NCBI GenBank assembly: GCA_032718475.1
Contig: JAUCBJ010008354.1
Coordinates: forward strand, 125,041-189,040
Direction of reading: 5' to 3'
Source of the DNA: Nemertoderma westbladi
Taxonomy: Eukaryota; Animalia; Xenacoelomorpha
Length of the DNA: 64,000 nt
Below, piece after piece: positions 5,144 to 51,893 of the stretch. The stretch's first letter is position 1, and the number at the start of each line of letters is the position of its first letter. The translations under genes were made by a program, and so were the position numbers. The notes beneath the pieces were generated by a model, which worked only from the letters and a program-made list of their open reading frames with translations, made no database searches and was not told where the DNA came from.

Positions 5144-5194
5144 TGCCCTTTATAAGAGATTTGAATATACATATTACTTGCGGTTGTCGAAAAG

Positions 5195-7487: not shown

Positions 7488-7609
7488 CATGGCAACAACC
7501 GACGATCCATTTTGAAGCTGTAGGCCTGCCGACAATAAGACCAAGAAAGATACTGGTACTAGGCCTATACAGTTTTTATCCCTGAGTCAGACTACAGCCA
7601 GACAGCACA

Positions 7610-10356: not shown

Positions 10357-10434
10357 CCGCTCCCAGAAAATGGGATTTTCAGTCTATAAAATATAAAAAT
10401 CACAGTTTCTAAAACCTAAAGATACTCTAAACAG

Positions 10435-12537
10435 TTAGTCTTTCTTACGCGGACGGCGTTTACGCAGTTTCTTGAGGCTAGCAAGAGTCCTTTTCTCTTT
10501 GGGGCGAGCCACTTTACGAGGAGGGCTGTAGCTCCTAGGCGAAGGGTGCAATACAATTGCATCAGAAGGTGTAGGGTTATGATCGGTATACCCGCCGGTC
10601 GAAGTACCTGGTTGATTAATATCAACCTCAGTGGAGTGAGGTCTAACGGCCTTTAGAGCGCGTCTCAGGACAGCAGCTCCTACGGGTCCTTGACGGGTCG
10701 TCTGGACACTAGCGGTGGGTGGACCGTGAGTGGTGAGGAACTTTCTCGGTTTAATGGTTCTCTCCAGCTCGCGTTCTCGGGTTCGATATTCATATGGTCA
10801 CCGAGATACTTCCTGTAGTTCAGGATGCGAGTTCACAAAGATGTCGCCATACTCAGGGTCCTGACGGATAAAATTGATCAGGTGATATGTGGTTATATCA
10901 TTAGGGTTAACGTTTCTAAGGTATTTTCTGACAAACTTGGTGGAAATACACTCACCAACACGCTTCATTAACTCGTAACTTGGTACGCGTGTTTTCTGTT
11001 CAATCGACGCGAATAGATAAGGATGGAACGCGTAAACTCCCTCGTAAGCTCGTCCAGAGTAATAGCGATGTCGGGATTCGCAATGTAAATCCGCGTTCGC
11101 TTCCCAAGCTCGGATGTATCGCAGGGTGATCATCTCGTCTACGCTCTCTAAATCGCGATTAAAGGGACAATTGTAACTTTCATGTCCTTTAAGTTGACAG
11201 TAGTGACATTGAGTCATAAATTGTGGGCAGACGGCAAAAATATGAGAGTTATTAAGCCTGCAATAAGCACAATATATTTCCATCATCGGTTGTTCGAGGA
11301 AATAGGAGCAAGGTACGCTCGAGTCTAGAGAGGTGAAGTGGTCTCTCGATGCGCATAATCGACAACGTTTTCGAGAAACGTAGTTGGCGTGTCGATAATC
11401 GTACGCTGTGAGACGTTGTGGACCTTGATACCACTCTATGACATAATCATTGTCACTGCTCCGGGAAGCTGTAGGCTGAATCGCTTCTGATTCCAAGCAT
11501 ACTGGTTCATCCTCCAGCTGTATAGACGAAGTGGGTGCGTCGGTCTCAGTAAGTGGACCCACTGTCTGTATTTCCACGACAGAATAACCTGTAGGTATTC
11601 GGGGTCTTTGTATAACAGATGAATGTAAGTTCTGTATACAAACGTCTTGAAAAACGGCAAATCCAGCGCTACTCAGTTTCTCCGCAGCTGAGTCTCTCAG
11701 ACTGAGTTTGGTCAGCGCGCGGTCCTTGAACTGACTATCGACGTTACGGAACGGAGTCAGAAAGCGCCGGAAACATTCGAAACGTATGAACTTATTGTGT
11801 TCGTCTAACTTGGCGAGTTTAGTTCCAAGTATTAATGGATGAGCGCGTATGGTACGACTGCACACATCGGCTAGCCAACCAGCAAGTGCTGCGTTTTCAA
11901 AGATCGTGTATATAGCTAAGGACGGGCGAAGTGGAACACTCATAAAGCTATATACGGCACCAGGCGCAGTTAATGGTCCATCAAAATATAAACGAGAGTA
12001 ATGATCTCCATATACTTGCTGGTAATTGATAGGATTTCCAACTTTGAAATTCCATCCATATTCTTGAAAGGCAAGATGTCCGATGGATGTCCGTTGTACC
12101 TTAGTAATGTCGCTGGGTGTATTGGCATACATAGTGCGAAAGAAACCTCGGCCTTCGGCCCAAGGAGCAATCAGCTGAGTATCAACGAAAGGGTATGGAA
12201 TGTTTTCCATATTCCGGAAGTCCTTTTGGAGATCTCCATAAACAGCTGAGCCGATCTTTAGGATTCTTTCGTTAAACAACATTTCGAGCACAGGTTGGGG
12301 TAACATTGATCCATCAATACCCATGGCCGGTTTGCGCTCGGTGTCGGTGACGTAACGCTGCGCGAGCTCGAATTGTCCATGTCGAAGTTTCTTTTGTGTC
12401 TCCGTAAGGGTTTCAAAAGAATAATCAATCACATCGGAACACGCTCGAGTGAATACGTGGGTAGAATCGACAAACGCTTGTAAAGGTAGAGTATATCTCT
12501 CCCTGATACCAAGATCATCTTCTATTAATTCAGTCAT
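10435..12537 (-). pseudogene. Accessory ORF in env position, about 700 codons, Cys/His zinc-knuckle protein with basic tail; one internal TGA at 10798-10800
   Basis: The 579-aa ORF continues in frame after TGA to ...KKLRKRRPRKKD*. Copies 2 and 3 have Arg at this codon. Motifs CRLC, CAYC..H..C, CHYC..GH..C. Confidence 0.75.
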
Positions 12538-14188
12538 ATCTGCTATACGAGTTCACCAATATTATAATGAGTTTATATATTTATTAGGCGAGCAGGCGTC
12601 GCTGCCTACTTCTCCCTTGCCCCCGGACAGTGTGAGATTCTCAGCGCCGATGTACCGCTGTCGCTGTACTTTCGCCAACGACATAGCCGTACAACGACAA
12701 CGATAACCGGCACAAGTCACTCCACTGTCCGTCCCAAAGGCTTAGATGTACTTCAGGTTTTCCTTGGAGAGTTAGGTTACTTTCACGATTGCGACTAGCT
12801 ACTGTAAACACACTTTAGCAGTAACATTCACCTATAAACTCACAAATACCACACAACTGGTCACAACTACGCACATTCGGGCCATTTGTCCGTTAGTCAA
12901 TGCCTTCCAGAATGTCACTGTATTATTATGTATCCTTGGATACTAGCAGTGCGCTATTTATTCCCTATGCTATTCATTGGGACAAGCTTTCTATTGTTCT
13001 TTTAACTCAATTCTAATTCTAGCGTGGTTGTTGCTATGGTGACATTATGTAAAGCTAGCGGTAGAGTTAGGGTAATTCCCATGCATACAGATCTGGGATG
13101 TTATTTAATAGTAATTCTTTAATAGTCAATGTCCTGTTTGATACATGACTTTATGAATTTTATCGGCTATTGACTATGTTTGGGAGACTTTCGCACACTC
13201 ATACGCATAATAAGATAAATCTCCGCTCCCTTGATCTATTAATTAATGGAATTTTGGGAATGTTATAAATTGCGTAAAAATGGCAATTTATTAAATTCAT
13301 TAAAAGGCATGAATTTAAATTTATTCCCTGAAATTTTATTATTTGATAATTAAATGGACATATTTTGATTCTAGAACATGTCTGGGGACACAAGATCCTT
13401 AATTCTATGAAAATTGTCCTTTTAAGAATATCGGTAAATGCTACGATATCTTAATTGACTAGAATTGTTGAAGGATCTGAATTTTACAGATTTTGATTTA
13501 TTGGATTTGCAAATATTAAATAATTAATATTTGAGATGGGCACCGATTTATTCCAGAACTTGTCTGGGGACGTTAACCACTGATTCTAGAATTTGTCTTT
13601 CAAGTATATCGGTGGGTGCCGCGATATCTTAATCGACTAGAATTACAGATGGTCAAAGGGTTTAACAGATTTATTTTGCGTTATACGCTACTGTTAAAGG
13701 GACATCACGCTACTATATGTATTATTTAATATACGGTATGAGAGCAATATCGCACGAAGCAATGTCAGTGTGAAGAGGCAAGTCGTTTCCAAGGTCTACC
13801 CAGAGCTTGGTTTAGCCGAGACACGAGGATCTGAACTTTGCATTCCTAATACTCTGCCTACCAATAATACTTGAATATAGTAGTGGCTTTATTGTACTTT
13901 AATAAGTACGGACATTTCATCTTACGGTAGTTACGTATTTATAATATAATACGGACAGTAAGGAAAGAGAAAAACACTTGTTTCTCACCGTCACACTAAA
14001 TATAATATAAGTAATTACGTACGCAATAAACACGAACATATTGCACTATTCTACTAAATAATCGCTAAATAATATTCTACTAAATTAAATAAAACGATTA
14101 TAATAAAATTACATAGTAATACATACATAAATATAAAAATAATAAAATAATATAAAATAATAGAGTCACACGCCCACTCCGAACGATA

Positions 14189-17100
14189 TTAAGTTGGGGA
14201 GTCCCTAGATGTCGGTTGGATTAGGGAAGTGGTCGTGGGAAGAGTTTCTTGCCTTCCATAGTTTCCGGAGAGCTCTCTGTCTCTTTCCAGTAAACATAAA
14301 CGACCCACTGGGCGGTTGAGCTGTTGAGTCTCAAAGACTATCCCTGGTTTCTTAAAGTTACGCCGCATGACGACGAGCTCTACTGATCGCACCAAACCAT
14401 CGCTCGAGATATGAGTCTCGATGATACGTCCTGTTTGCCATCGCTTACGTGGGAGATCGGGGTCCACAATAAGCACCATGTCTCCAGCGCTGACGTTTTC
14501 TTGCTGCGCAAACCACTTAGTTCGAAGTTGTAGAGTGGGCAGGTAATATTTCTCGAAATGGTCAGCGAAACGACGGGATAGCAACTGCATAAGTTGCCAG
14601 GTTCGACGGCAGTACTCGTCTCCGTCTGTGATCTCCGATCGTGGGAGCATGGCTACGGGTTTCTTCAGTAGAAAGTGCGCGGGTGTTAGCGCTTCCAGGG
14701 AATCAGGACTTGAAGAGACTGGCATAAGCGGTCTTTCGTTGAGATAGGCGGCGATTTCCTCCATTAACGTCCGCAATAGTTCGTCGGTGAGATAAGCGCG
14801 ACAAGGTACAATAAAGTGGAACGCAGTCTTCACGCTCCTAATCAATCTCTCCCAACTTCCTCCCCACCAAGGGGCGTCGGCGGCATTGAAGGTCCAGCTA
14901 GACGCTGTTATCTTTAGCTGATCGTCCACCTGTCTTTTGTTCCAGTCCTTTACGTAAGCTTGAATTTCGTTGTTGGCGCCAATGAAGTTCGTTCCCTTAT
15001 CCGATCTCATCGTGTTACTGGTTCCGAAGCGAGCGATCTGTCGTCGTAAACTCAACACGAAGCTGTTGGTGGATAGATCGTTTACCATATCGAGATGGAT
15101 AGCTCTACAAGTCATACAAACGAAGATGACACACCATCTCTTGACTATAGTCCGGGCACGATATACTTCAATAGGGCCAAATAAATCCACACCGGTATTA
15201 GTAAAGGGTGGTTCATAGAAGCTTACTCTTTCCCTAGGTAATTCTGCCTCTCGCTGTGTCAAAGGCCTACTGAATGCTTTCCTACAGGGTATGCAGTTCC
15301 TAAGGACTTGGTTCAGAGCCCTACGGGGTTTATAAAAATAGTAGCGAGTTCGAATTTCGCTCAGAACTCGTTCTCTTCCAGCATGATACAGTTTGCTATG
15401 AACATCTACAATCATCTTGATTTGTATGTCAAGATTTCTAATGAGTATGGGAAACTTAGTGTCAAAGGATAATGGGGCGTTGGTAAGCCTGCCTCCAACA
15501 CGTATTAACCCATCTATCATGGTACTAGAGAAGCGATCCCTTAAGCGCATCTGCGGATTTCTTAACAACAGGAAATACTTATCGGGATCCTCATAGCATT
15601 GTAGGAGTCTCAGCATCTGTTTGTTGGTTTCATCATGCTCCTGGTAACTGATCTTCTCCTTTAGAAACCTGTCGGATATCTTGTATTTGGGAAGATCTTT
15701 AACAACATGGACTCGTGCAGATGTTGATGGAGCATCATCACTATTGGTCTTTGTCCCGGAGTAACGATGATGAAAACATCGTTTTAAATAGGTGACGGCT
15801 TTACAGAGCCGATTCCAGGAACTGTAATGACGTATCACTCTCTGCAGGAGAGGTGAGAGTCCTTGCGAAATATCTGGTATTCCAGATTTCCAATCCTTGT
15901 CACGGATTTCTAAGACTTCTTTATCTGTGGCGGTGGGTTTCTGATCCAAAGCATCCTCTCCGGAAGTAAATAATACAGATAGATCAACCGCAGGTTTAAA
16001 CAACTTCGATTTACTCGCTCGAGTTTTGGGTTTAACTTTCTCCGCTCCCTTGGCCTGTCTGATCTCTGCTGTTGTGAGATGGGGAGGCCATTCTTCTTCT
16101 TCTCTGTAGAGAAAGTCGGGTCCACCTAACCATTCGGGAGTATTTACCAATTCCTTTGGAGTCGCTCCTCGGGAAGCGATGTCTGCTGGATTAATCGTTC
16201 CGGGGCAATGTCTCCATTGATCCATCGTCGTGCGACTAAGTATGATGGCTACTCTGTTGGTAATGAAGACGCTGAACTGACAGACTTCATTGGTTATATA
16301 CTCTAACACGAGTAAAGCGTCAGTCCAATAGACAGTTTTATCTAATGGATAGTCAATCTGTTCTGTTACATTCCGGCCGATGGCTGTAGCGTATAGAGCC
16401 GCTTTTAACTCCGCTCGAGGAACTTTCAACTTGTTGTTGATTAATGCCTTAGAAGTAACCAAGGCGACTTTGATTCCATCCGGAGTTTCCACTCTTAGAT
16501 AGGCTACTATACCTATTCCCATATCGCTGGCGTCTCCAAACACATGGAGTTGATAGGAATACATAGGGAGAACATGACCAAAATATGAACGGGAAATTAT
16601 AAAATCCTCGATAGCCGGCAGAGAATCTTCCCATTTCATCCACTTCTTTAATAATTCTCCCTTAAGTGGATCGTCCCATGAGTGGTTTTCAAGCCACATT
16701 TGTTGTACCAAACTACGAGCAATCAATATAACTGGGCTAATAAATCCCAATGGATCGAAATAAGTGCTCAGTATACTTAAGCAAATCCGTTTGGTTCGAA
16801 CTGGATTATCTCGCTGTTTTAGCTGGAAAAACAGGATATCTCGCTCTGTGTCCCACTTTAAGCCGAGTGTCTTGGTTTCTGGCAGATCATCTTTGATCAA
16901 ATCTAGATCTTTCGCCCCTCGATCTTCCGCAGGGATCGACTCCAGAAACTCACGGGAGTTGCTGGTGAATTTCGTTAATCGAAACCCACCTCTTTTTAAG
17001 CACTCTACCGTTCCTTTAGCGACCTCAATGGCTTCCTCAACTGATGGGAGGGACTTCAGATTATCGTCCATATATATGTCTCGCTTGATGTTGTCGATCA

Positions 17101-20100
17101 CTTCCTTAGAGAATGCCTCTCGGTTGTCCTCTGCAGTGGTACGCACTACCGAACAGGTGTTGGAAGGGCTTGAGATTATCCCAAAGGCCTGGATGGTCAT
17201 CCAGTACTCCACCGGTTTCTGGTTGAGGTCTCCTTCGGGCCACCACAGAAATCGTAGACTATCTCGATCCCTATCTAACACCTTGACTTGTAAGAACATG
17301 CCTTCTATATCGGAGGCGAAAGCAATCGAATATTGTCTCAATCTTAAAAGAATTCCCAACAAAGATTGAAGTAAGTTGGGTCCGGGTAACAATTCAGAGT
17401 TAAGGGATTGACCCATGTAAAGAGCGGAGCCATCAAACACTACTCTCACTTCATGTGGTTTACCGGGTTTAGGAACGTAATGGTGAGTTAAGTAATACGT
17501 TCTTTCAGTCACAGGTGTTTCTTCCGGTACTCTCTCCGCGTATCCCTTACTAATAAATTTCTCCAGCTATGTTTGATACATTTCTTTAGCTGAAGAATTA
17601 GCCGTAAGGCGTCGATGGAGTTGCGCGATTCTTTTTTCCGCCAAGGGTCTGTTATTGATGAACTTCGGTTCTCTCTTGCGGAAAGGTAGACCGACTTCAT
17701 ACCTACCTTGATCTTTGAGGAAACGCGTAGTTGTTTCTTGGATCTGCTTGGCCCTTTCCTCTTCCACCGATAAGGCTTTATCGTAGGAATTGGGCTCTAC
17801 CGCCTCTTGCGTAAAGAATCATACGGCATGTTCATCTCGAGTCTTGGCATTGCAACGCTCAATGACGTCATTTAACTCGTCGTTATAAGCTTCTCGTTCA
17901 GATGGATAAAGAAGTTGACATAAGTTCACTTGGTTTTGCCAAGCCTCGTTTTCCTTAAGGAGATCGATGGTATTCTCCTCATCAAAAAGCTGGTGAACGT
18001 CGTCGTTATCTGAGGAGTATGGAGTTCCCTCAGTTAAATCGTCTCCCTCACTAGTATCATCTTCCCATTCACTCACCTGGCAGACGCGCTCTTGCGGTAG
18101 TCTTTCTCTGAGTGTTCTACGGGAAGGGCCAGTAAAGTACCAACCTACTCTAGTTCTTACCGCATAGGTCTGTAGTGGCTGCGGTTGAGCAGGCCGTTTC
18201 TCTAATGTCTCCAGCGCCTCATGCGCGTTTTGGCCGATGAGTATTTGCACTCCAGGATAATCAGTCTGGAATCGAGGTATGTTAAGATGTTGGATGCTCT
18301 CATCCTCGTCCCAATTATAAAGGTCTGCTTGAGTAGTAGCGAAGTTCTTTATAGCCACCATTTTCACTGACCTTATGCTATGTTCTCCTAGTTCGTCCTG
18401 GGGGGTGGACAACACGCCTACATAATAATCCGCTGTTACTGTAGATTTCCAAACTTGCATAATGCCGGACATGTTTAGCTTAGTTCGGAACTTGGGTTGT
18501 CCAGCAAATATGTCTTCGGCTAGCTCTTTGTCGATGAATGTTCCTGTACTACCGGAGTCAAGGAGGGCGTTCACTACATAACTCCGTTTAGGTCCGTGAA
18601 CCCTTACCTGCACCACAGGAAACTCTCGGATCCCTACATTGGAAGATGGCTCTTTCCAAGATGGTTGTCGATCAGGAGTAGTTAGAGTGAGGTCGCTGTC
18701 TGTATCTTTTTCATATGTGAGTGCTCGATACACTGCGGTATTTATCATGTAACAGGATTCGTTTTCGTCGGAGAACTCGTCCGTATAGAATCCTTCCATC
18801 TCAGATTGATCAGTGTCGTTCACATCACTGAATTGGACATGTAGTTCGGAATCACTTACCTGATTCGGACTATTTCGCTCGAATTCAGCGTGCAACAAGA
18901 TATGATGTTTCGCACCACACTTTGCACACCTTATGTCAGAGTAACAGGTTCGCCGTTGGTGTCCTTGTCTGAGGCAATTATAACATAACCGCTTATCCCA
19001 CATGACTTCTCGTCTCTCCGTTAATGATTTCTTCAGGAATTCATCACACATATTCAAACGGTGGGTCCCGTCACATAGCGCACATTTCGGTTTGATGTTA
19101 CTTACCTTATTTTGGGTAACATTGTGCACTCTCGTTCTTTCTTCGGGCTTTCTCACCTGAATTCTCTTGGGAGACGTAGGAGGAGTTTTTCTTACCTGTT
19201 CTCTCTTGTCATTGGATCGAGACTTAAATTTACTTCCCTGTTCGTTAGGTGTTTTATTGACATAATAAGATCTTTCAGTGTCTTTCCCGCTATCCTCCCC
19301 TTGGGAAGCTTGGCTTTCGCCGTCGTCGGTATAACACACTGGTGTTACCTTTCTTCTGGAGACGGGTTTCTCACTTACCTTGTTCTCCGATGTCTTCTCT
19401 CTGGACTGCTTTATGAGCTGTAATTTCACTTCGCCATCCAAGAATGTCATGAGATCAGTCATGGTAGGGTCTCGTTGTTGTTGTTCCATCATGTATAACA
19501 CTTTCTTGTCCCAGCGTGTACCTACTCCACCCTTCGGTAAAGTAGAAGCCACTGCTCTAATAACCATAGCACTCTGATACTCATGAGACTTACCTAGCCA
19601 ATCTAATTGTCTGCAGATCTCCTGAATTTCATTGGAAAACTCTATAATCCCGTTGCTAATAAACTTTCGGGGCGCTACCAACTTTGCATACAAATACCCA
19701 GCTATGTTATTCCTATTACCATATGTTTAGTGTATCCCAAACTTGTCTTAATCCGTCTGGATGTCCAATAAACTTTAACGCCATTAACTTGGGAGATCCT
19801 TCCAAGCACTCTATGAGGAATCTAAGTTTCTCTCCATTAGATAGTACAGAGTTCTGTATGTTATCTTTGTAATATTCATTAAAAGGTAACCATTTCATCT
19901 CATCTCCATTGAACTTGACGATCTCTCCCACCTTTACCGCTTGCCGGGCTTCGGTTCTAGCCATTTGACGCGTAAAACTTTCTTGGGCCATCGTGTTATT
20001 TAATATCGAATTATCGGTATATAAATTTCTCGGATTATGATCAGGTCTATAGGGAATGTCATTATCAACAGGTCTATAATTACCCTTAATAGGGTTCACT

Positions 20101-22304
20101 ATAGGAGTTTCTACTTCGCTAGCAGTGTATATGCGTGTAGGCTCCACACCTTGCGCATGAGATACTTCAGGCCTAACAGGTTGACACATTGTTACCGAGG
20201 GTGGTGGTATACCCTTTTGTGTATTTACTAATTTATCGCGTTCGAGCGCGATACTTTGCTGCACTTCTTGCAACTCTAGTCTACTTTCCCTTACTGTGCC
20301 CTTGAATTGCTGAACAGTCTCCTGCATCTGCCCGAGCAGGAGATCCATCCCCCGCCGTCTCTCGTCCACCCATTCGACCGCAGAAGCGGGAGTCGCCAAC
20401 GTTGTAGCGGGCGGACGAGGGACAACGGGTGACAAATCATGAATATTTCGCTCGGGGTCCAGGACCTGAACTGTCTCCTGGGCAGTTCTACTGGGCACAG
20501 GTAGCTTAGTGCTGTGCAGAGGGAATTTAGAGGTAGCTTCAGGGAGCACAGGTGTGTCTATCACCGAAGGGGTGATTTCAAGAACAGGCCTAATTATTTC
20601 AGGCTCATCTACTATAGTAGGGAGTCTTTCTATTTTAATTATTTGGTCTGTGGGTTCTGTACTACCTAAGTTGGTGCTATTTAGTTGCCTTCTAACAGCT
20701 GGAGGCAAATCAGGCAATTTCTGACGGTAGAATGTTCTTTTACGTCTGCTTAGACGAGATCTATTTCCTTTGCCTTCAGTATCGGTGGTATCGCCTTCCT
20801 CAGATGATGTATATCCCTGTCTTTTGGGAGTAGATCGATTCATCATCTGCATATTACTAGCTGTTAACTGTTTATTTATGCAGTCTTGATTCTCCTGAAT
20901 GTTTTCCAATTCTAATTGGGTGATTTCTTCCGCCGCTCTACGTTCTGCTTCTGCCACTGCCATTTCTGCTTTTCTTTTCATTTCGGCTGCTTTTCTTTTC
21001 GCTTCTGCCTCTGCCGCTGTCGCTGCCGCTTTTCTTTCCATTTCGGCTGCTTTTCTTTCCATTTCGGCTGCTTTACTTTCCTCTTCGGCTGCTTTCCTTT
21101 CCGCTTCGGCAGCTGCTACTGCTGCTTTCTTTCTGTCTTCTATACGTTTTTTCTTTACTTGCTCTTCTTGGACTCGTGTGATGCGGAGTTGTTCATCAAA
21201 TTTAGCCTGATTCGCAGCCCTCATTTCCACATCGATGGCATCCAACACGCGCTGAGTTCCTTCACTATTAGGGCTAAGTCCATCTAACCTTCTCCTCAAC
21301 TCGTCATCACCTAAAAAACGTTGATAGTCTGACAGATAGATGTCAATGGCATCCCTCTTATGCGGCTTCTCTGCCGTCGCTTCACTTTCCACTTGGGAAA
21401 AAGTAGCGTCTGTTGATTCTCCATGGGATGAGCGCTCCTCCAGCTGAGCTTTCCACTGAGCTGTTCCTTGAACCTGGAGACTCACCCGTTGAAACCAAGT
21501 CTTTACGGCAACTTGCAACGACGTGTCTTGTCTTCGTTTAGAAGCCTCCTCAAAGGCCGATAATATTAGCCTGATTCGTAGAATTCTTTCTCTAACTTGA
21601 TAAAGCAGTTGTCCCTGCTCTTGAGGTCCTTGTGGTTGTTGAAACAGTTGTCCTTTTACTCGCTCCATAGAGCTGAAAAATCCCTGTGCGTATCCGGCTG
21701 CGGACCTCTTCCACACAGCTGGATCTATGGTTTCCTTGGCTACTCCCATCCGGTGTATGTCTTCCCAGGCAGCTTCTGATAAATCAAACGGGAGTCCGGG
21801 TCCGGGGAAGTTCCATTGCGACTCGACAATAGACTTCAGTTCTTCCCTCGTGTATCCCGCATAACTATCTTTAGTTGATCGCTGACTTCTCGCCCAATCG
21901 ATCTGGTGTTCTTCCACTGCAATCAATAACCTAGTGAGTACGGCTGCAGGAAGGATGTGAAGGGGATCCGAATAAACCGCATCCTTCATCTTTGCTCCGC
22001 GCTCGGGTGTCAGCTCTACAGTATCCTCACTACTGGAGCGGTTGGGCCATTGAGAAATAAGTTCTTGGCTCGCGGGTTGTTGCTGTTCTGCTGCTTCTTG
22101 GTCCCGCTTGACCTGAGCTCGAGTGCCTATGATAGACCTACGATGTTGGACCAGCCTAGGTTCTGTTATTACTACTGGAGGGATGACCTTCCTCACAGTA
22201 GGAGGTGAACTGAACTTAGGTCTAGACGGTTCTACACCTCTATCTGAGTCACAGATAGTTACATCTAATAAACTGTCTGACAGGTTCTGCTTAGTATCAG
22301 ACAT
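14189..22304 (-). pseudogene. BEL/Pao gag-pol polyprotein with one 5-bp deletion and two in-frame stops
   Basis: KFNGDEMKW..F gag core; BEL knuckles CALC..H..C, CYNC..GH..C, CAKC..HH..LH; protease ALLDSGS; RT RVVFDGS, DIEGMFLQ, YMDD; RNase H FGDAS, PRAEL, WTD, NPAD; integrase HAG..CIPC, VDLFGP, SDKGTNF, WGGSWERL. Lesions near 19722, 17819 and 17567. Confidence 0.95.
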
Positions 22305-23639
22305 GTTTATGGGTACAGTTGAATGCCTACTGCTATATTACAGTCTAAGCAAGTCTAGTAATTCAGTATTAACTGCTAGCCTAGTAATTAATTACCGATA
22401 CTGCTACTCAGTGTAGCGTGATATATATAATATATTAGATTACCGGTATGCTTATAGTATATATAAGTATTATTACAGACTAGGTTTATCACAGAATACC
22501 GGTATAATTTTAGCACAGATATATATAAATATATAATAGGCCTATCGGGAATACCGGTATACAGCTTACAGTTTGTAGTATATATAATTCTGGACTAGAA
22601 TTAATTACAAGTACCGGTATAATTTCAGCCTAAATTTATAGAAATAAAGATAATAGGCCTATCGTAAATACCGGTATATCAATTATTTTAAATAATTGAA
22701 TTTCTGAATTTTAGGGTTACTTGGTTACTTTACTTACTTTATTACCGTTATTTGAGCAGTAATCCAACTGATATTGAGACCTAATGGTTGTATGGTAGCT
22801 ATGCCTGCTACCATATGCATGCTGGTAGCCTGCTATTTATAAATCGTTAGATTTGATTTATAATATATATATACCCGTTTTAATGGGTTTTGTCAATGTT
22901 TGAAATAAATGTTATTATTTCTGGGGAGTAATCACTACACAAAGCGGTGCGCTTTCAGTGAAGTGTTACTTATAGGACACTAAAACAAATAATTCTAATT
23001 TACCTAAGTTACTTAATACTACAAATTACGTACAATTCGGGTGAGATTACAATCTCTAAATAAACACAAAAATTTACAAAAACACAAAATACGAATTTTC
23101 AGGGTAATTTTACAAGAAGTCTACAAACCAGCCTAACAAAGGGTTAGAAATCTGGTTATTACAACTACTGCGGTATTTGAAAATAATACGTAGTAGTAAA
23201 TACACTGCGTTGTCCAGATAGGAAAATACCACCGCCTGACGACCTATAGCCATATCGCTATAGGTACTACGTTATGTATCACGGAGTGTTCCTACCTAGA
23301 AGTTAATAGAGCTAATCGAACGTGCCTATCAACCACTTTACAACACAAATATAATGCCTACACTAATTACTTTCGGAAAGCACTGTACACTAAACCCTAA
23401 ATTAGGTACGAGTACTTGTACAACATATAATCAGTAGTTAAATATACTTGAACAGCTAAAAGAACCACGGCATCTGCTGGAGTGACCAGTGCACAAAATC
23501 ACCAGTCTTTACCTACGCCAAGCAGCCCGTGTAGTACCGGGGTTAATTTAACTATAGCGGTATGTATAACAAACACAATTATTGTAGGAACAAACTTGGG
23601 GAATGAATGTTGCGAATAATAGCATAAACTCTGAATAAT

Positions 23640-24215
23640 AAATATTACGCTACGCGTACAAACCACTCAAACAAAATGCAGACCAAATACTGACAGACTA
23701 CTATCAAGCCTAAATAAACTACAGGACATGCAGACTCCGAAATGGTTAGGTAGTATGCGTTCTAACCCAGTAGTACGACTTATTCTTTAGATGGGGGTTT
23801 ACCTTACAGCTTTGGCTGCCCCTACTTCCTAACCGTTCTTTATCGGACAGAGGCTCTACACACACTGCAATCCGTTCAGACCTAATAACAGCCAGACAAC
23901 TATCCAGCCTACAAATTATCTAAATAAATATTATACGCTACCTGTACAGACTACACAAACAAAGCACAGACTAAACGATGGCAGACTACTCTCAAGCCTA
24001 AATAAACTACAGGACATGCAGACTCCGAAATGGTTAGGTAGTATGCGTTCTAACCCAGTAGTACGACTTATTCTTTAGATGGGGGTTTACCTTACAGCTT
24101 TGGCTGCCCCTACTTCCTAACCGTTCTTTATCGGACAGGTGATCTACACACACTGCAATCCGTTCAGACTTAACAGCAATCAGACAACAGCCCAGCCTAC
24201 AAATTGTCTGTACAA
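23640..24215. repeat. About 288-bp tandem duplication in the 5' leader; equivalent duplications in the other four copies
   Basis: CAAGCCTAAATAAACTACAGG starts at 23705 and 23993. Confidence 0.85.
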
Positions 24216-24525
24216 TATGATCAGGCTTACACGCCTTCTGTTCAATACTGGCCTACAAATAAATAAAACTGACAGAAATAAGTAAGCTCCAAAAGAAACA
24301 AGGGGTGTACAGTCCCTAATCTCTTAAACAGCCTACCGGTATGCAATAATCAAAATCGAATAATACTAATGTACTTATACTAGAAGTACCGGTTAGGACA
24401 GTTGGGCCTACAGACCTACTGAAGTACCGATTCTGGCAGTTGGACCTACGGGCCTACAGCAGTACCGTTCAGGTTTACCGGTTGACCGGTACTTTCAACT
24501 TTATTGCTTACTGCAATAAAGAAGC

Positions 24526-24537
24526 TATATCCATTAT
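24526..24537 (-). promoter_or_regulatory. PBS-position sequence of copy 1 (ATAATGGATATA), complementary to its own LTR site 25299-25310
   Basis: Abuts the LTR-terminal CA; pairs with element-strand TATATCCGTTAT with one G:U. Confidence 0.7.
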
Positions 24538-25773
24538 TGTTCGCGCTTTCAGACCTTTGGCAGTTTAACCCGCCAAATTAGGATGTCTTCTAGATAATCA
24601 ATCGCTTTTAGCCTCTGACAAGTATTTGATTCACTACACTAGTCGAAACCAATCTGTGCGCGATCATTCACCCGCTGGATATACCCGGGAGATTGGGTTC
24701 GACGGCTTAATCTTATTGCTATGTAAGCCTAATGTATTATTCGACTGACAGTATTATATAATCTCTGACAATATTATTCACCTTCGGGGAATATTAACAG
24801 TTCCTTTAGGACGTGGCGCTCTATCTATATAAACAGAGTTATGACTTAAACTACTCACAACGATATGGCTTAGTTATAATTCACATATATGGCGCATTCT
24901 TTAGGAAATGCTTCGTTATCAGTCTCACTCATACACAATGCTGCACAATACTGCACACTAATCTGCCGATCTTCACTGATTTTAGTCACATATAAAAGGA
25001 ACACAGACCGACTCATGTAGGGTCTATCAAATAACATTAGATTCACTTCAAACCACTTTAACATAAGTCACAATCGTTATATGTAACCTGTCTCTCTTAC
25101 CTTCTGTATATCAAGAATATTGGGTTTTCGGGGTTATTTATCGTTATTCCAAATATAATAATTCATCAACCATATTATGAAGAACCGACAGTAAATAGCA
25201 GTATAACAATATAAAAGTATGCACAGGTATATTAGATTAGGTATGTTGCGTTGATTGAGTATGGGCCAGTTAACCAGTGTGGTTGGTTGGTTTGTTTGAT
25301 AACGGATATATGTCCTTATAATTAAGCCTACTAGTGTTAGGCTAAAACAGAAAAGCACAAAATATTCCAAAGCCGCTCTCTCCTGGCTCAGGACAGAATG
25401 TAAACACTGCCCATAAATGCATTGCGTGATTTCTAGGAAATTTCTGTACAAGAGCCATAAAAATGCTCTGATTGGCTGACTGAACTGAGAGACGCCGTAG
25501 AACAAAGAAAATCGACACGTATGAATATCAGCTGTTAACCGTCGTCATAGTAACTACTGTTCAAGAGTAGCTATCACCTTTTGCGTCACGGAATTGCCAT
25601 AGAATCATCAACTATGCCTTCCACAGTACACATACGGAGGAAATAGCTCTTAGATCCTCTAAAAAACACCGATACAGCAATAATACGGTCTCTTACACCT
25701 ATTAAATCAACTACAGAGTATTTTAATGTAAAAATAATAAAAATAACGGGGCAATTCAGCAAAGGCTTTTACA
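24538..25773 (-). repeat. 5' LTR of copy 1
   Basis: Element strand TGTAAAAGCC...GCGCGAACA; contains GCCAATCAG and TTATAA. Confidence 0.97.
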
Positions 25774-25778
25774 ATATC

Positions 25779-26446
25779 AGAGAAAGAGATAACTATTTTG
25801 TATAAATTTAGGAAATACCGTGTTTTAGCTGATTATAATAATTACTGCAAATATAGAAACCTTGTCCAACGGGAAATAAAAAAAGCTAAATCTGAATATT
25901 TGTACAACAAAATAAGTGAGAATAAAGATAATCCAAAAAGTCTATGGTCTACCCTAAAATCTTTAGGTTATAAAAACCTTAAATCTAAATCGAATATTGT
26001 TCTGCAAGATAACGGTGAGCTGATTCATGATCATACTCTAGTTAGTAATTTATTTAATAATTATTTTACTAATGTTGCCTCTAATTTAGTTAAGAAATTA
26101 CCGTTATCAAGTAATAAATATAGTATAGGGTCCGAAACTCTAAATAATTTTTATTTAGAAAAGTTACAAAATTCAGAAAAGTTATTTTTAAAACTAGATC
26201 TAATACCTGCCCGTTTTCTTAAGGATGGTGCTGAAGTACTTAAAGTGCCTATTACTTTTATTATTAATTACTCTATCGTAGATAATGTAGTACCAGACGA
26301 ACTGAAATTAGCTAAGGTTGTTCCTCTGTATAAAAAGAATAGTAAAGTAGAACCCTGTAATTACAGACCTGTTAGTATCTTAAGTATTGTATCTAAAATT
26401 CTAGAACGTTCTGTTTTTCTACAGCTGGAGGCACATCTTAGTAGGC
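25779..26446 (+). pseudogene. LINE fragment 2 (pre-RT and RT N-terminus)
   Basis: YCKYRNLV, NPKSLWSTLK, FNNYFTNV, LDLIPARFLKD, AKVVPLYKK, NYRPVSILSIVSKILER; continues WMTSGILSNI|RERD across copy 1. Confidence 0.92.
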
Positions 26447-27679
26447 TGTACGCGCTTTTGAAGAACTTTAGCAGTTTAACCTGCCAAAATTTATATGTCT
26501 TTTGGTTTACAAATAGACTTTAGAAGTTGACAAATATTTAATACCAATAAACACAACATTAGCAGAAGCCAGCCTAGTGCGCGTCCATTCACCCGCTGGA
26601 TATACCCGGGAGACTGGATTCTGAGGGCTTAGATTATTATTGCAGTGTAAGCTTACTGTATTATTCGATTGATCGTTAATAAATAATTTCTGACTAATAT
26701 TATTCACTTTCGGGAAATATTAACAGTTCCTTTAGGACGTGGCGCTCTATCTAGGTAAACAGAGATATGACTTATACTAATCACAACGGTAAGTCGGTAA
26801 GGCTTATGATTCACGTATGAGGCGCATTCTTTAGGAAATGCTTAGTTATCAGCCACAATCATGCACGCTACCGGTAACACACAATACTGCTCACTAATTT
26901 GCCGACCGTCAATGAATTTTATCATATATAAAGAGAACAGCAACGGACCCATGTAGTGCTTATCAAATAGCATTAAATTCACTACAAACCACAACAATAT
27001 AAGTCGCAATCGCTATATATAACCCATCTCTCTAACCTGTAGTGTATCAAGAAAATTGGGAAATTTGGGTTCTTTATAAATGTTCTCCAAATAATAATAT
27101 TCAACCAAAACACAACAGTAAATAGCATTAAGACGGTAGGTTAAGATGGTAACACTGTTTGACTGGACCGATAACAGTTATACGCTCTATAATCTTAAGC
27201 CTACTAATGTTTCTTCTAAAGTCTGAAACGAATTGACTCTAGAGCCGGTGTTCCTGGCCTGGATAGAAGGAACATAACAGTATCACAAAAACAGTAAGAC
27301 TGAACACTCCTAGTATGATCGGCCGAATATCTCCACAACGACAGAAAAAATCGCTCTGATTGGCTTAAGCTAAACAAAGAACCATGTGTCCAATGGCCGT
27401 TTCCATGTCAGCAACCAGCTGTTAGATGTCGTAATCTGAATCATCAAGGCTAAGCTGTGTAAAGGTATTTGGTACATTGCGGGTTTTTTGCCTCACCGTG
27501 TCCGCCAAAACACGTATATAGAAGAATGACTTTTATGTCCGTTAAAACACCTATAACGGTACCTTGCGGGCGAGGGGAATATATATATAGTTAGAGAGCC
27601 TTTTAGAGTATTCCAGCGCCTGGGGGGAAACTGGATTGCGAAGCAAAAGGGCCAGTTATATCCCACAGAAGCTTTTACA
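26447..27679 (-). repeat. 3' LTR of copy 2
   Basis: Direct repeat of 49260-50492 (offset 22813). Confidence 0.95.
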
Positions 27680-32145: not shown

Positions 32146-33380
32146 AGTAAAAGCTTCTGTGGGATATAACTGGCCCCTTTTGCTTCGCAATCCAGTTTCC
32201 CCCCAGGCGCTGGAATACACTCAAAGGCTCTCTAACTATATATATATTCCCCTTGCCCGCAAGGTACCGTTACAGGTGTTTTAACGGACATAAAAGTCAT
32301 TCTTCTATATACGTGTTTTGGCGGACATGGTAAGGCAAAAAACCAGCAATGCACCAAATACCTTTACACAGCTTAGCCTTGATGATTCATATTACGACAT
32401 CTAACAGCTGGTTGCTGACATGGGAACAGCCATTGGACACATGGTTCTTTGTTTAGCTTAAGCCAATCAGAGCGATTTTTTCTGTCGATGTGGAGGTATT
32501 CGGCCGATCATAATAGGAGTGTTCAGTCTTACTGTTTTTTCTTGATACGGTTGTGTTCCTTCTATCTAGGCCAGGAACACCGGCTCTAGAGTCAATTCGT
32601 TTCAGACTTTAGAAGAAACATTAGTAGGCTTAAGATTATAGAGCGTATAACTGTTATCGGTCCAGTCAAACAGTGTTACCATCTTAACCTACCGTCTTAA
32701 TGCTATTTACTGTTGTGTTTTGGTTGAATATTGTTATTTGGAGAACATATATAAAGAACCCAAATTTCCCAATTTTCTTGATACACTACAGGTTAGAGAG
32801 ACGGGTTATATATAGCGATTGCGACTTATATTATTGTGTATGTAGTTAATTTAATGCTATTTGATAAGCACTACATTGGTCCGTTGCTGTTCTCTTTATA
32901 TATGATAAAAATCATTGACGGTCGGCAAATTAGTGGGCAGTATTGTGTGTTACCGGTAGTGTGCATGATTGTGACTGATAACTAAGCATTTCCTAAAGAA
33001 TGCGCCTCATACGTGAATCATAAGCCTTACCGACTTACCATTGTGATTAGTATAAGTCATATCTCTGTTTAACTAGATAGAGCGCCACGTCCTAAAGGAA
33101 CTGTTAATATTTCCCGAAAGTGAATAATATTGGTCAGAAATTATTTATTAACGATCAATCGAATAATACAGTAAGCTTACACTGCAATAATAATCTAAGC
33201 CCTCAGAATCCAGTCTCCCGGGTATATCCAGCGGGTGAATGGACGCGCACTAGGCTGGCTTCTGCTAATGTTGTGTTTATTGGTATTAAATATTTGTCAT
33301 CTTCTAAAGTCTATTTATAAACCAAAAGACATATAAATTTTGGCAGGTTAAACTGCTAAAGGTCTTCAAAAGCGCGTACA
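32146..33380 (+). repeat. 5' LTR of copy 3
   Basis: Direct repeat of 43398-44632 (offset 11252). Confidence 0.95.
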
Positions 33381-33391
33381 ATAACAGTTAT
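33381..33391 (+). promoter_or_regulatory. PBS-position sequence of copy 3 (ATAACAGTTAT)
   Basis: Exact reverse complement of LTR site ATAACTGTTAT at 32647-32657. Confidence 0.7.
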
Positions 33392-35617
33392 TGACTTTAT
33401 TGCAGTAAACAATAAAGTTGAAAGTACCGGTCGACCGTTAAACCTGAACCGGTACATCTGTAGGTCAGTAGGCCCAACTGCCAGAACCGGTACTGCTGTA
33501 GGTCCGTAGGTCCAACTGCCAGAACCGGTACTTCTGTAGGTCCGTAGGCCCAACTGTCCTAACCGGTACTTCCAGTATAAGTACATTAGTATTATTTCGA
33601 TTGTGATCTATTGTATATTGTAGGCTGTCAGGGGAATAGGGATTGATCACCCCTCATTCTTTTGTATAGTTTACTTATTTCTGTCAGTTTTATTTCCTAG
33701 TAAGTTAATATTGAGCTGAAGACGTGTAAGTCTGCTCAGATTGTTCAGATAATTGTAGGCCGGACTGTTGTCGGATTGTTGTTGGGTTTGGAGAGATTAC
33801 GGCGTGTGTAGAGTTTGTCCGATAGAGTGCCAGTTAGTAAGTTGGGGCAGCCATAGCTGTAAGGTCAATCCCCTCTTAAAGAATAAGTCGTACTACCGTG
33901 TTAGAACGCATACTAACTAACAATTTTGGAATCTGCACATACTGTAGTTTATTTAGGCTTGACAGTATTCTGCCAGCGTTTTGGCCTGTGTTTGTTTGTG
34001 TGGTCTGTTCAGGTACCGTAATAGTTATTACTCAGATATTTTGTAGGCTGGATTGTTGTCTAGCTATTATTAGGTCTGAAGAGATTGCTGCGTGTGTAGA
34101 GTTTGTCTGATAAAGTGCCAGTTAGTAAGTTGGGGCAGCCATAGCTGTAAGGTCAATCCCCTCTTAAAGAATAAGTCGTACTACCGTGTTAGAACGCATA
34201 CTAACTAAACATTTCGGAATCTACACGTACGGTAGTTTATTTAGGCTTGGTGGTAGTCTGCCAGCGTTTGGTTTGTATTTTGTTTGAGTATTCTGTACGG
34301 GTAGCGTAATATTTATTATTCAGAGTTTATGCGATTATTCGCAACATTCATGTCCCCAAGTTTATTCCTACAGTAATTGTGTTTGTTACACATACCGTTA
34401 TAGTTAAATTAACCCCGGTACTACACGGGCTGCTTGGCGTAGGACAAGACTGGTGACTTTGTGCTTCGGTCACTCCAGCAGATGCCGTGGTTCTTTTAAC
34501 TGTTCAAGTATATTTAACTACTGATTATTTGTTGTACCAGTACTTGTACCTAATTTAGGGTTTAGTGTACAGTGCTTTCCGAGGTAATTAGTGTGTAGGC
34601 AGTATATTTGTGTTGTAAAGTGGTTAATAGGCACGCTGGATCTGGTAGTCCGCGGTAATTAACTTCCAGGTAGGAACACTCCGTGATACATAACGTAGTA
34701 CCTATAGCAATACGGCTATAGGTCGTCAGGCGGTGGTATTTTCCTATCTGGACAGTGCAATATATTTACTACTACTTATTATTTTCAAATACCGTAGTAC
34801 CCTGTCCGTTGTAATAACCAGTATTCTAACCCTTTGTTAGACTGGTTTGTAGACTTCCTGTAAAATTACCCTAAAAATTTCGTACGTAATATTTTTGTTG
34901 TGTTTAATTAGAGATTTAATCTCACCCGTATCGTAAGTAATTTGTAGTATTAAGTAACTTAGGTAAATTAGAATTATCTGTTTTAGTGTCCCATAGGTAG
35001 CACTTCACTGAGAGCGCACAGCTTCTGTGTAGTGACTCCCCCAGAAATAATAACATTTATTTCAAATATTGACAAAAAACCCATTTTTTAGGGTATATAT
35101 TTATTATAAATCAACTCAAACGATTTATAAATAGTAGGCCTGCCATACAACAACTAGGTCTCAATATCAGTTGGACTACTGCTTAAATAGCGGTAATAAA
35201 GTAAGTTAAAGTAACTAAGTAACCCTAAAATATTCAGAAATTCAATTATTCTAAAATAATTGACATACCGGTATTTACCATAGGCTTATTATATTTATTT
35301 CTATAAATTTGAGCTAAAATCATACCGGTATTCTGTAATTAATTCTAGTTCATAATTATACTTATATATACTATAAGTGTAAGCTGTATATCGGTATTCA
35401 CGATAGGCCTATTATATATGTATATATATTTGTGCTAAATTTATATACCGGTACTCTGTGACAAAACAAGTTTACAATACTTATATATATTATAAGTGCA
35501 TACCGGTATTCTAATATATTGCAATAAATTACCGGTACTAGGCCAACGGTCATACTGAATTACTAGACTTGCTTTAACTGTAACTATAGCAGTAAGTATT
35601 CAACTGTGTAGCTAAAC

Positions 35618-38600
35618 ATGTCTGACACTCAGCAAAACCTGTCAGACAGTCTAATCGATACAACCATCTGTGACACAGATAGGAGTGTGGAGCGATTAAG
35701 AAAGGAGTTCAGCTCACCTCCTACTGAAAGAAAAGTCATCCCTCCAGTAGTGGTATCAGACCCTAAGCTAATCCAACACCGTAGGTCTATCATCGGCACT
35801 CGGGCCCAAGTCAAATGGAACCAGGAAGCAGCTGTCCAACAGCAGCAACATCCTAGTCAAGAAACTTGTTCCCAGCGATCCGATAGCTCCAGTAGTGCGG
35901 ATACTGCAGAGCTGACCCCCGAACGCGGAGTGCAGATGGCGGCTACAGCCTACTCGGATCCCCTTCTCACCCTTCCTGCCGCAGTGCTAACTACAATATT
36001 GATCGCGGTGGAGGAACATCAAGCCGATTGGGCGAGAAGTAAGCGAGCGACCCAAGATAGTTATGCGGGATACGCCAGGGAAGAATTGATGTCTATTGTC
36101 GAGTCACAATGGAACTTTCCCGGACCCGGACTCCCGTTAGATTTGTCCGAAGCTGCTTGGGAAGATATACACAGGCTGGGAGTGACTAAAGATACAATGG
36201 ATCCAGCTGTTTGGAAGAGGTCGGCAGCAGGATATGTGCAGGGATTCTTCGGCTCCTTGGAGCGATTAGAAGAACAACTGTTTCGACAACCCCAAGGACC
36301 TCAAGAGCAGGAAGAGCTGCTATATCAAGTACGCGAAAGAACCCTGCGCATTAGACTAATCCTATCAGCCTTTGAGGAAACTTCCAAAAGAAAACAGGAC
36401 ACGTCGCTGCAGGTTGCTGTCAAAACTTGGTTCCAGCGGGTAGGTCTCAAAGTACAAGAAACGGACCAGTGGAAATCCCAGCTGTCTGAGAGACTAACCT
36501 ATGAAGAACCAACCGATGCCACCCTTTCTCAAGTGAAAGGCGAAGAGACCGCAGAGAGACCACGAACGCGAGACGCCATAGACATATATCTGTCCGACTA
36601 TCAGCGATTCCTAGGAGACGAAGAGTTGAGGAGACGGCTGTCTGGACTTTCCCCTAATAGTGAAGGAACCCAACTTGTGTTGGACGCAATTGATACTGAG
36701 ATGATAGCTGCGGACCAAGCTAAATTTGATGAACGTCTCCGCATAGCTAGAGCTCAAGAAGAACAAGTAAAGAAAAGGCGGATTGAAGACAAAAAGGCAG
36801 CAGCAATAGCAGCGGCAATGGCAACAGCAGAAGCAGACAGAAAGGCAGAAAGAAAGGTGGCAGAAGCAGCGGCCGAAGCGGAAATAAAGGCGGCGGAGGC
36901 AAAAGCAGAAGCAGACAGAAAGGCGGAAAGAAAGGCGGCGGAGGCAGTGGCAGAAGCAGAACGGAGAGCGTCTGAGGAGACCGCCCAGCTGGAGTTAGAA
37001 GATCTGCAGGAGACGCAAGACAGCATCGGTAGGCAGTTAACAGACAGTCGAATGCAGATGATGAGTCGATCTACCTCCAAACGCCAAGGCTATACATCAT
37101 CGGAGGAAGGGGATACCACCGATCCTGAAGGTGGAGGAAATCAATCTCGTCTCAGTAGACGTAGAAGAACATCTCACCGTCATAAATTGCCTGATTTGCC
37201 CCCAGCCGTTAGAAGACAATTAGCTAGCACAACAGTAGGTAGTACAGAACCCACAGACCGAATTATTACCGTCAACAGACTCCCTACTATAACAGATGAG
37301 CCTGAAATAATTAGGCCTTTTCTCGAAGCCACCCCTTTGGTGCTAGAGACACCTGTACTCCCTGAAACAAACTCTAAATTCCATTTACACAGTACTACAC
37401 TGCATGTACCCGGTAGAACAGTCCATGAAAATATCCCTGTCCTGGAAGCTGAGAGAGAAATCAAAGATTTGTCTCCTGTCGTCCCGCGTCAGCCCGCTAC
37501 AATGTTGGCGACTCCCGCTTCGGTGGTCGAGTGGGTAGAGGAGGGACGGCGGGGGATGAATCTCCTGCTCGGACAGATGCAGGAGACTGTCCACCAACTT
37601 AAGGGAAGGTAGAGCAGAGTTGCAAGAAGTGCAGCAAAGTATCGCACTAGAACGCGACAAATTAGTCAACATACAAAAGGGCATACCAATACCCCCAGTA
37701 ACATTGTGTCAACCTGTTAGGTCTGAAGTATTACATGCGCAAGGTGTGGAGCCTACACGCATCTATACTGCTAGTGAAGTAGAAACTCCTATAGCAAACC
37801 CTATTAAGGGTGATTATAGACCTGTTATTAACGATATCCCCTATAGACCTGACAATGACCCGAGAAATTTATATACTGATAATTCGATATTAAATAACAC
37901 GATGGCCCAAGAAAGCTTTACGCGTCAGATGGCTAGAACAGAAGCCCGCCAAGCAGTCAAAGTGGGAGAGATCGTCAAATTCAATGGAGATGAGATGAAA
38001 TGGTTACCTTTCAACGAATATTACAAAGATAGCATACAAAACTCTGTACTATCTAACGGAGAGAAACTTAGGTTCCTCATCAAGTGCTTGGAAGGACCTC
38101 CCAGGTTAATGGCGTTAAAGTTTATTGGACATCCAGAAGAATTAAGACAGGTATGGGATACATTAAACATCAGGTATGGTAACAAGGATAACATAGCTAA
38201 GTATTTGTATGCAAAATTAGTAGCCCCCCGACACTTCCTTAGTAGCGGGATTATAGAGTTTTCCGATGAAATTCAGGAGATCTGTAGACAATTGGACTAG
38301 TTAGGTAAGTCTCATGAATATCAGAGTTCAATGGTTATTGGAGCCATAGTCTCTACTTTACCAAAGGGTGGAGTATGTACACGCTGGGACAAGAAAGTGT
38401 TGTACATGAATGAACAACAACGACGAAGTCCTACCATGGCTGATCTCATGTCCTTCTTAGATAGTGAAGTAAAATTACAACTCATAAAGCAGTCCAGAGA
38501 GAAAACATCGGAAAATAAGGTAAGTGAGAAACCCGTTTCTAGGAGAAGGATAATACCAGTGTGTTATACTGACGACGGCGAAAGCCAAGCTTCTCAAGAA

Positions 38601-43319: not shown

Positions 43320-43397
43320 CTGTTTAGAGTATTTACGTATATTAGAAACTGTGATTTTGTATATTTTATAGACTCAAATCCCATTTTCTGGGAGCGG

Positions 43398-49248: not shown

Positions 49249-49259
49249 ATAACTGTTAT
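49249..49259 (-). promoter_or_regulatory. PBS-position sequence of copy 2 (ATAACAGTTAT)
   Basis: Reverse complement of its own LTR site 49984-49994. Confidence 0.7.
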
Positions 49260-51811: not shown

Positions 51812-51893
51812 ATAACGGATATTTAGTCTGTATTGCAGTGTAGGCACTAAATGCAGTTTAATATTGTTCTGGTAAAGAACAATAACGGATATA
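51812..51893 (+). promoter_or_regulatory. Duplicated PBS-position sequence of copy 4 (ATAACGGATAT at 51812; ATAACGGATATA at 51882)
   Basis: Complementary to LTR site TATATCCGTTAT at 51084-51095. Confidence 0.7.

Follow-up and report, generated by a model that had tools for sequence, protein, structure and literature searches.

What primes reverse transcription in a BEL/Pao retrotransposon whose primer-binding site (PBS) does not carry the TGG of a tRNA-type PBS? According to the ICTV, the Belpaoviridae are primed by tRNA, and how they replicate is poorly understood (PMC8742986). In the window (the whole stretch of 64,000 nucleotides analysed here), the initial annotation had proposed tRNA-independent self-priming, by which the element's own RNA would take the place of the tRNA. 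This proposal is well supported and extends past the window, distant relatives having been found to share a PBS complementary to their own LTR, while parts of the original reading need correction.

Organization of the window

The window is a nest of BEL/Pao elements in five copies. Copy 1 (positions 9121-25773, minus strand; 16.65 kb) has identical 1236-bp LTRs at 9121-10356 and 24538-25773, and its insertion point lies inside LINE-like sequence. Copy 2 (26447-50492, minus strand; 5′ LTR 49260-50492) represents a second subfamily. Copy 3 (32146-44632, plus strand) is nested and inverted in copy 2, and the two are about 97% alike. All three of these complete copies are flanked by target duplications of 5 bp. 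Copy 4 (5′ end 50622-51893, plus strand; 5′ LTR 50622-51811) begins at 50622 and is broken by copy 5 near 60373. The five copies amount to about three to four independent lineages. Their LTRs are 1190-1236 bp in length, and a purine-rich end precedes the 3′ LTR.

The BEL/Pao class was confirmed by Pfam matches to PF05380, PF18701, PF17921, and PF03564 (Peptidase_A17, DUF5641, an integrase zinc domain, and DUF1759). Proteins of the Pao type with the same domains are the best homologues, at 34-45% identity; those bearing a name come from fish, echinoderms, cnidarians, a nemertean, and a mollusc. In copy 1, the RT-RNase H-integrase frame (14189-17566, minus strand) was read as having the YMDD and RNase H acidic motifs, with the integrase downstream of RT-RNase H, and gag/protease occupies two separate frames upstream of it (17819-19726 and 19716-22337, minus strand).

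Some further features of the locus may be recorded here. The 2.2-kb leader contains direct repeats of about 290 bp (23630-24210) and about 125 bp (22423-22678) in all copies. A LINE-like element with PHD and endonuclease domains is split by copy 1 into 7586-9180 and 25747-26523, and a separate integrase fragment lies at 5165-5758. When runs X1, X3, X4, and X5 were compared with 24300-25800, thousands of short variant contigs in two runs pointed to a large and diverse family. Run X4, which is labelled with another organism, likewise contains the element family.

A PBS complementary to the element's own LTR

The PBS of copy 1 (24526-24537, minus strand) adjoins the terminal CA of the 5′ LTR. It is complementary to a stretch inside that LTR, the predicted self-primer (site S, 25299-25310, minus strand; LTR positions 464-475). 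According to the initial annotation, the 11-12 nt after the 5′ LTR are complementary to a homologous LTR site in every copy. This was confirmed in all five copies, and all eleven stretches concerned were located: the site at 49984-49994 and the PBS at 49249-49259 in copy 2, at 32647-32657 and 33381-33391 in copy 3, at 51084-51095 with the PBS twice (51812 and 51882) in copy 4, and at 60479-60490 and 61364-61375 in copy 5. The reported absence of a TGG-type tRNA PBS also holds, as TGG is missing from all five. In every copy there is no spacer between the LTR-terminal CA and the PBS, and the best complement of the PBS anywhere in its own LTR is the homologous site. The S:PBS pairing spans 12 bp in copy 1 (with one G:U), 11 bp in copies 2, 3, and 4, and 12 bp in copy 5; the second PBS copy of copy 4 pairs over 12 bp.

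Is such a match expected by chance? A complement was contained in 26, 13, and 7 of 20,000 Markov-simulated LTRs for copies 3, 4, and 5, respectively, and the chance of a complement at the homologous site is about 1e-3 per copy. Among the internal k-mers of copy 1, an exact complement in its LTR exists for 2 of 14,150 11-mers and for none of 14,149 12-mers.

The initial annotation also inferred compensatory change between site and PBS. The double changes themselves stand, since both partners differ in 4 of the 11 aligned pairs and pairing is kept in 100% of the cells; selection need not be their cause. As outlined in the accessible part of PMC7175516, plus-strand synthesis of LTR elements ends in the PBS sequence. 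From this copying, which is established for plus-strand synthesis, I infer that the PBS would be regenerated from the primer in every cycle, keeping site and PBS matched. The covariation may thus come from primer copying rather than from selection. If the site is indeed the primer, the match speaks for primer use more than for compensatory selection.

The surroundings of the site were also inspected. Both subfamilies retain a CCAAT-box motif (25468-25477, minus strand), which precedes S by about 165-180 nt. A TTATA, also conserved, is found 6-11 nt upstream of the site; there is no TATA motif about 30 nt upstream. The stretch right after the site varies between the copies and coincides with a depth dip and several joints in the contigs. 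I infer that this is where strand transfer would occur. A fourth variant of the site is present in contigs of two runs. No tRNA gene was found within the window, no Rfam match in 24300-25800, and no match of the LTR motif or the Pol alignment in viral contigs. One site variant has a likeness to an anticodon loop, which was ruled out because the other variants do not fit.

Spliced and contiguous matches in distant relatives

Is the self-complementary PBS special to this lineage? A metagenome scan with the Pol alignment gave 76 loci at about 29-48% identity, most of which have no usable LTR. Seven families and 14 loci were scored, after five further loci lacking an LTR start had been dropped before the count. 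In the seven families the LTR end was fixed independently, by comparison of the 5′ and 3′ LTRs. Six of these seven have a PBS matching their own LTR. In four, the match of 10-11 nt runs across a GT-AG exon junction in the LTR, while two match a contiguous site (10 and 12 nt, at offsets 4 and 2). The corresponding null gave 0-2 of 150 for each family. None of the seven has TGG, and the duplex begins 0-4 nt after the terminal CA.

The 14 further loci, in which an LTR start could be identified, served as a blind test that demanded a match of at least 10 nt directly after CA or TA. Eleven matched (10 spliced and 1 contiguous), against 0.94 expected. Under the strict rule, one of the seven fixed-end families and three of the 14 blind loci have no match.

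It was revealed that the LTRs of these BEL/Pao relatives contain segments of 66-426 nt that resemble introns, and that the PBS complement arises once they are removed. Such a segment is present in the 5′ LTRs of L001, L008, L011/L012, L029, L034, L039, L040, L043/L044, L048, L051, L053, L055, L056, and L067. The splice donors are mostly GTAAGT or near it, about 4-8 nt of the upstream exon take part in the pairing, and the intron is kept in both LTRs wherever both were seen. In L064, a splice-junction match is visible by eye in the 3′ LTR, and the 5′ LTR did not score. As the match is present only after splicing, it cannot be a DNA inverted repeat, and transcription must start upstream of the junction. 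Judged from these sequences, the spliced matches argue for pairing at the RNA level over a DNA inversion or tRNA priming.

How are the two types related? On a midpoint-rooted RT-RNase H tree of 82 sequences, built without reference clade members or an outgroup, the long branch of copy 1 belongs to a clade (support 0.98) that includes one spliced and one contiguous locus, and contiguous types appear in four places among the spliced ones. From this scatter, it is plausible that the contiguous sites originated by intron loss. The self-complementary PBS looks like a clade-wide trait rather than one special to the lineage in the window.

Co-varying helices around the site

A blind scan of the five-copy alignment for shared long-range helices, with column shuffles as the control (n = 40), returned 41 helices, nine of which have double changes; in the shuffles there were 1.9 such helices on average and never more than 7. 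S:PBS and the helices called A, A2, A3, B, and C make up six of the nine, and one is an alternative pairing of the site, S:D′. Thus, five further co-varying helices surround the S:PBS duplex.

Helices A, A2, and A3 are nested, and in them about 43 nt upstream of the site pair with three stretches lying 65-184 nt before the LTR end. In copy 1 (minus strand), the 5′ arm at 25320-25347 supplies the strands A (25339-25347), A2 (25330-25337), and A3 (25320-25328), and the partners near the LTR end (24606-24712) are 24606-24614, 24636-24643, and 24704-24712, respectively. S:PBS crosses these nested helices. Helices B and C flank the PBS as side duplexes like those of the Tf1 "pretzel", and their partners are LTR stretches downstream of the site. 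Helix C uses the last LTR bases (24541-24546, minus strand, just upstream of the PBS) and pairs them with 24658-24663 (minus strand), within the stretch of the arm partners. It has a double change between the subfamilies and one broken pair in copy 5. Helix B uses bases 17-26 past the LTR end, and in copy 1 its 5′ strand (24712-24719, minus strand) pairs with 24513-24520 just downstream of the PBS; a double change is found in copy 4. A hairpin after the PBS (24499-24521, minus strand) competes with helix B. The 3′ half of S, together with the bases that follow it, has a complement in the internal LTR stretch D′ (24914-24921, minus strand). S:D′ excludes S:PBS, and two of its pairs change on both sides in copy 5.

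In the six-helix model, 95.7% of the cells pair and 10 pairs have double changes. None of 500 shuffles reached either value, which is not a probability, because the model was built on the same sequences that were scored and the shuffles ignore kinship. Helices B, C, and D have one or two double changes each, and in copies 2 and 3 the register of A and A3 has to be shifted. The copy-5-type letters in the partner of helix A3 (places 24706 and 24712) are common in contigs of four runs and are therefore not private decay. Since primer copying cannot produce the flanking helices, these are better evidence of a selected RNA structure than the S:PBS match. A 6-bp D′:E helix with one double change and one R-domain stem were set aside, as about two such helices are expected by chance.

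Among 12 relatives, side duplexes did not exceed chance, and an upstream helix reached p ≤0.02 in two only. In the related families of L044 and L067, an 8-9-bp helix joins the upstream exon with a stretch about 72 nt before the LTR end, in different letters. Its partner overlaps a word resembling a poly(A) signal, and its position resembles that of helix A; it is not significant alone.

Folding was predicted with a pseudoknot-free program, so crossing helices are outside its model, and the results vary with the RNA ends chosen. With the RNA started at the site, the predicted probability of S:PBS was 0.97, 0.61, 0.90, 0.11, and 0.95 in copies 1 to 5, respectively. When 50 upstream nt were added, it fell to about 0 in all four unrearranged copies, and S:D′ was predicted among them at 0.29, 0.95, 0.99, and 1.0 (in rising order). 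A longer 3′ tail lowered S:PBS to 0.03 in copy 2 and 0.10 in copy 3; with such a tail, the sites of copies 4 and 5 pair with their second PBS copy. The S:PBS duplex is modest, at -10 to -12.5 kcal/mol across a loop of 730-770 nt.

Rearranged ends of copies 5 and 4

The 5′ end of copy 5 (60373-61375, plus strand) is aberrant. It consists of an inverted U5 end, the arm, the site (60479-60490), the LTR body, a PBS (61246-61257), the complement of the arm (61258-61286), a repeated U5 end, and the PBS again (61364-61375). The block 60373-60490 is the exact reverse complement of 61246-61363. The element's left end is the inverse of the block after the first PBS, and the ends of this 118-bp inversion fall on the site and on helix A. 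Past the first PBS, the 29 nt found upstream of the site recur as their reverse complement; at the helix-A homology the sequence passes back into the U5 end, and the PBS then follows a second time.

One event would produce this structure: plus-strand synthesis reading through a primer that extended about 40 nt 5′ of the site, followed by a jump at helix A. The same structure is also explained by a DNA snap-back at the 12-bp repeat. Among the contigs listed, none bridges the copy-5 junction, which counts neither for nor against either account. Copy 5 was apparently integrated inside copy 4 with the inverted U5 end as its left attachment site. Copy 4 itself has a tandem duplication of the LTR-end/PBS junction (51812-51893), its two units separated by unplaced sequence of about 40 nt.

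A model of self-priming and its alternatives

Taken from the sequences, these data make it probable that this BEL/Pao family primes reverse transcription with its own RNA. Site S would pair with the PBS, and the RNA would be cleaved immediately 3′ of S; the predicted cutter, following the example of Tf1, is the RT-RNase H of the element itself. Minus-strand synthesis would begin at the LTR-terminal CA, by direct extension of the 3′ end so created. The LTR RNA may take two folds. In one, the arm helices and S:D′ would form, and S:D′ would hide the 3′ half of the site; in the other, S:PBS with the side duplexes B and C would be ready to prime. When or where priming from the site is possible would depend on these two folds.

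Where would the transcript start? A start about 40 nt upstream of the site would give a primer of about 50 nt with a 5′ extension, whose last 11-12 nt anneal. I hold this, weakly, to be an even possibility, and copy 5 would in that case have arisen by copying of the primer over its full length. The co-varying helices upstream of the site, the extension seen in copy 5, and the spliced relatives tip the balance slightly towards this upstream start and away from one at the site itself. The closest copy of Tf1, with the first base of the site as the transcript's first base and a primer of 11-12 nt, is a sub-variant of self-priming that I regard as possible but less likely. It has a precedent, since the Tf1 primer is described in the accessible text of PMC7175516 as the RNA's first 11 bases, released by an RNase H cut between bases 11 and 12. 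The folding predictions favour S:PBS for an RNA that begins at the site and S:D′ for one with 50 upstream nt; under this sub-variant, the arm helices and S:D′ would form only in the 3′ LTR RNA and hide the second copy of the site there. However, the folding program cannot represent crossing helices, the spliced relatives require an exon upstream of the junction of which about 4-8 nt pair, copy 5 carries the arm complement directly after its PBS, and a TATA motif is missing about 30 nt upstream of the site. Starts at other positions are improbable.

Could the duplex have another role than priming? The pairing could be a long-range structure of the RNA with a part in packaging, dimerisation, translation, or polyadenylation control, and priming would be left to a host RNA fragment or a protein. 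The many co-varying helices of the LTR RNA that do not involve the primer fit such a role, and the TTATA just upstream could put the start downstream of the site. The register argues otherwise: the duplex runs from the first base after CA in all five copies and in the 11 matching blind-test loci (where this was the search rule) and begins within 0-4 nt of it in the fixed-end families, as the 3′ end of a primer requires, and no other primer site is evident. I therefore consider a purely structural role unlikely. A DNA-level process, either a snap-back or a template switch between short inverted repeats, might instead have copied the site to the PBS position with no part in priming. The copy-5 inversion ending on the site and helix A and the duplicated PBS of copy 4 are what such a process could leave behind, but it would leave the element without any primer and the covariation of B, C, and D unexplained, and in 14 relatives or families there is no complement until the intron is removed; the probability of such a process is very low. 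Equally improbable is that the PBS variants bind host tRNA 3′ ends or halves and that the LTR match is secondary. The ICTV profile of an 18-nt PBS for tRNA-Arg or tRNA-Gly (PMC8742986) speaks for it, as does the half-tRNA priming reported for some copia lineages in the accessible part of PMC6317226. Against it, TGG is found in none of the five copies or the seven fixed-end families, and the PBS differs between families, each tracking its own LTR.

Beyond self-priming of the window family, a broader scenario can be offered tentatively. A broad animal branch of BEL/Pao may have abandoned tRNA priming. In most of its members, the spliceosome would assemble the primer at a cap-proximal LTR intron, so only the 5′ copy primes. 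The intronless window family would have exchanged control by splicing for a two-state RNA switch that hides or exposes a 5′-extended primer, and copy 5 would be a fossil in which the whole primer of about 50 nt was copied.

Comparison with known systems

The closest likeness is with Tf1/Tf2 of Schizosaccharomyces pombe, in the Tf1/sushi group, which, as far as the accessible texts describe it, also have an LTR-adjoining PBS complementary to about 11 nt of their own LTR RNA and use no tRNA. In the "pretzel" outlined for Tf1 (10.1101/2022.12.06.519325, seen in part), two side duplexes flank the PBS duplex; helices B and C match them in position, and three duplexes are found in the window element, of which B and C are short. 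Unlike the Tf1/sushi elements, which are Ty3/gypsy chromoviruses, the window element is a BEL/Pao element with Pao domains and no chromodomain match. It also differs from Tf1 in its loop of 730-770 nt, in the three extra helices upstream of the primer site and the alternative helix hiding it, in a primer that may not be 5′-terminal, and in having relatives that build the site across an intron. The cleavage has been demonstrated for Tf1, whereas for the window element it is predicted from the RNase H motifs of copy 1. The window family can be viewed as a variant of the Tf1-like mechanism in a superfamily for which I found no description of it, and not as a member of the Tf1 group. It adds co-varying pretzel-like and alternative folds and a possible fossil of an extended primer.

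Does the missing tRNA PBS affect the classification? The window element resembles the Belpaoviridae (genus Semotivirus) in its Pao-type Gag/Pol, the protease-RT-RNase H-integrase order, the TG..CA LTRs, the short purine tract, and its animal-type relatives (PMC8742986), and its LTRs lie within the family range of 0.2-1.2 kb, at the upper edge (PMC8742986). In contrast to the same profile, it has no PBS for tRNA-Arg or tRNA-Gly, copy 1 is 16.65 kb rather than 4.2-10 kb (PMC8742986), and the extra frame after pol has zinc knuckles rather than a recognised env. As the Belpaoviridae are classed by Pol, the missing tRNA PBS questions the ICTV description and not the membership.

Self-priming has been predicted from sequence before, for the copia TAR lineage (Houba, Osr-1) and for Tcn1, by the same standard of a complement of at least 10 bp to the region 0-5 bp after the 5′ LTR (PMC6317226, accessible part). 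These elements belong to different superfamilies and hosts, and in that part no splice-built primer or alternative fold is described. In the literature as far as it was accessible, no BEL/Pao self-priming or splice-built primer was found; subscription papers, Repbase reports, and supplements lay outside this scope and could contain a prior report. A word search of the accessible text of PMC554778, PMC3118150, PMC6238403, and PMC12440569 gave no discussion of priming.

A self-complementary PBS in the window and in most of the testable distant relatives would overturn the tRNA default that the ICTV assumes for the Belpaoviridae (PMC8742986). If the self-priming reading is true, this would concern much of one of the three superfamilies of LTR retrotransposons, to which Tf1-type priming would extend, and splicing and RNA folding would be tied to the start of reverse transcription. 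Annotation tools that rely on the PBS would tend to miss such elements, and these would lie beyond host control via tRNA fragments.

An extra frame after pol

Copy 1 has an extra frame of 584 aa with CCHC-type knuckles after pol (10798-12552, minus strand). Atlas placed it weakly (0.87) in a family of DEDD 3′-5′ exonuclease plus CCHC, and its one clear homologue has a faint DNA_pol_A_exo1 match (E 0.2). A separate homologue search with the frame gave none, there was no useful match among solved structures, and the predicted model (pLDDT 30) was unusable. DEDDy ORF3s occur in LTR elements of rotifers, according to the accessible part of PMC5408684. As a lead only, the product of the frame could trim or bind the primer RNA. 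Copies 1, 4, and 5 have a donor-like motif in the LTR downstream of the site (25095-25102, minus strand), and copies 2 and 3 have a variant of it. The motif could serve a subgenomic RNA of the extra frame or the suppression of polyadenylation.
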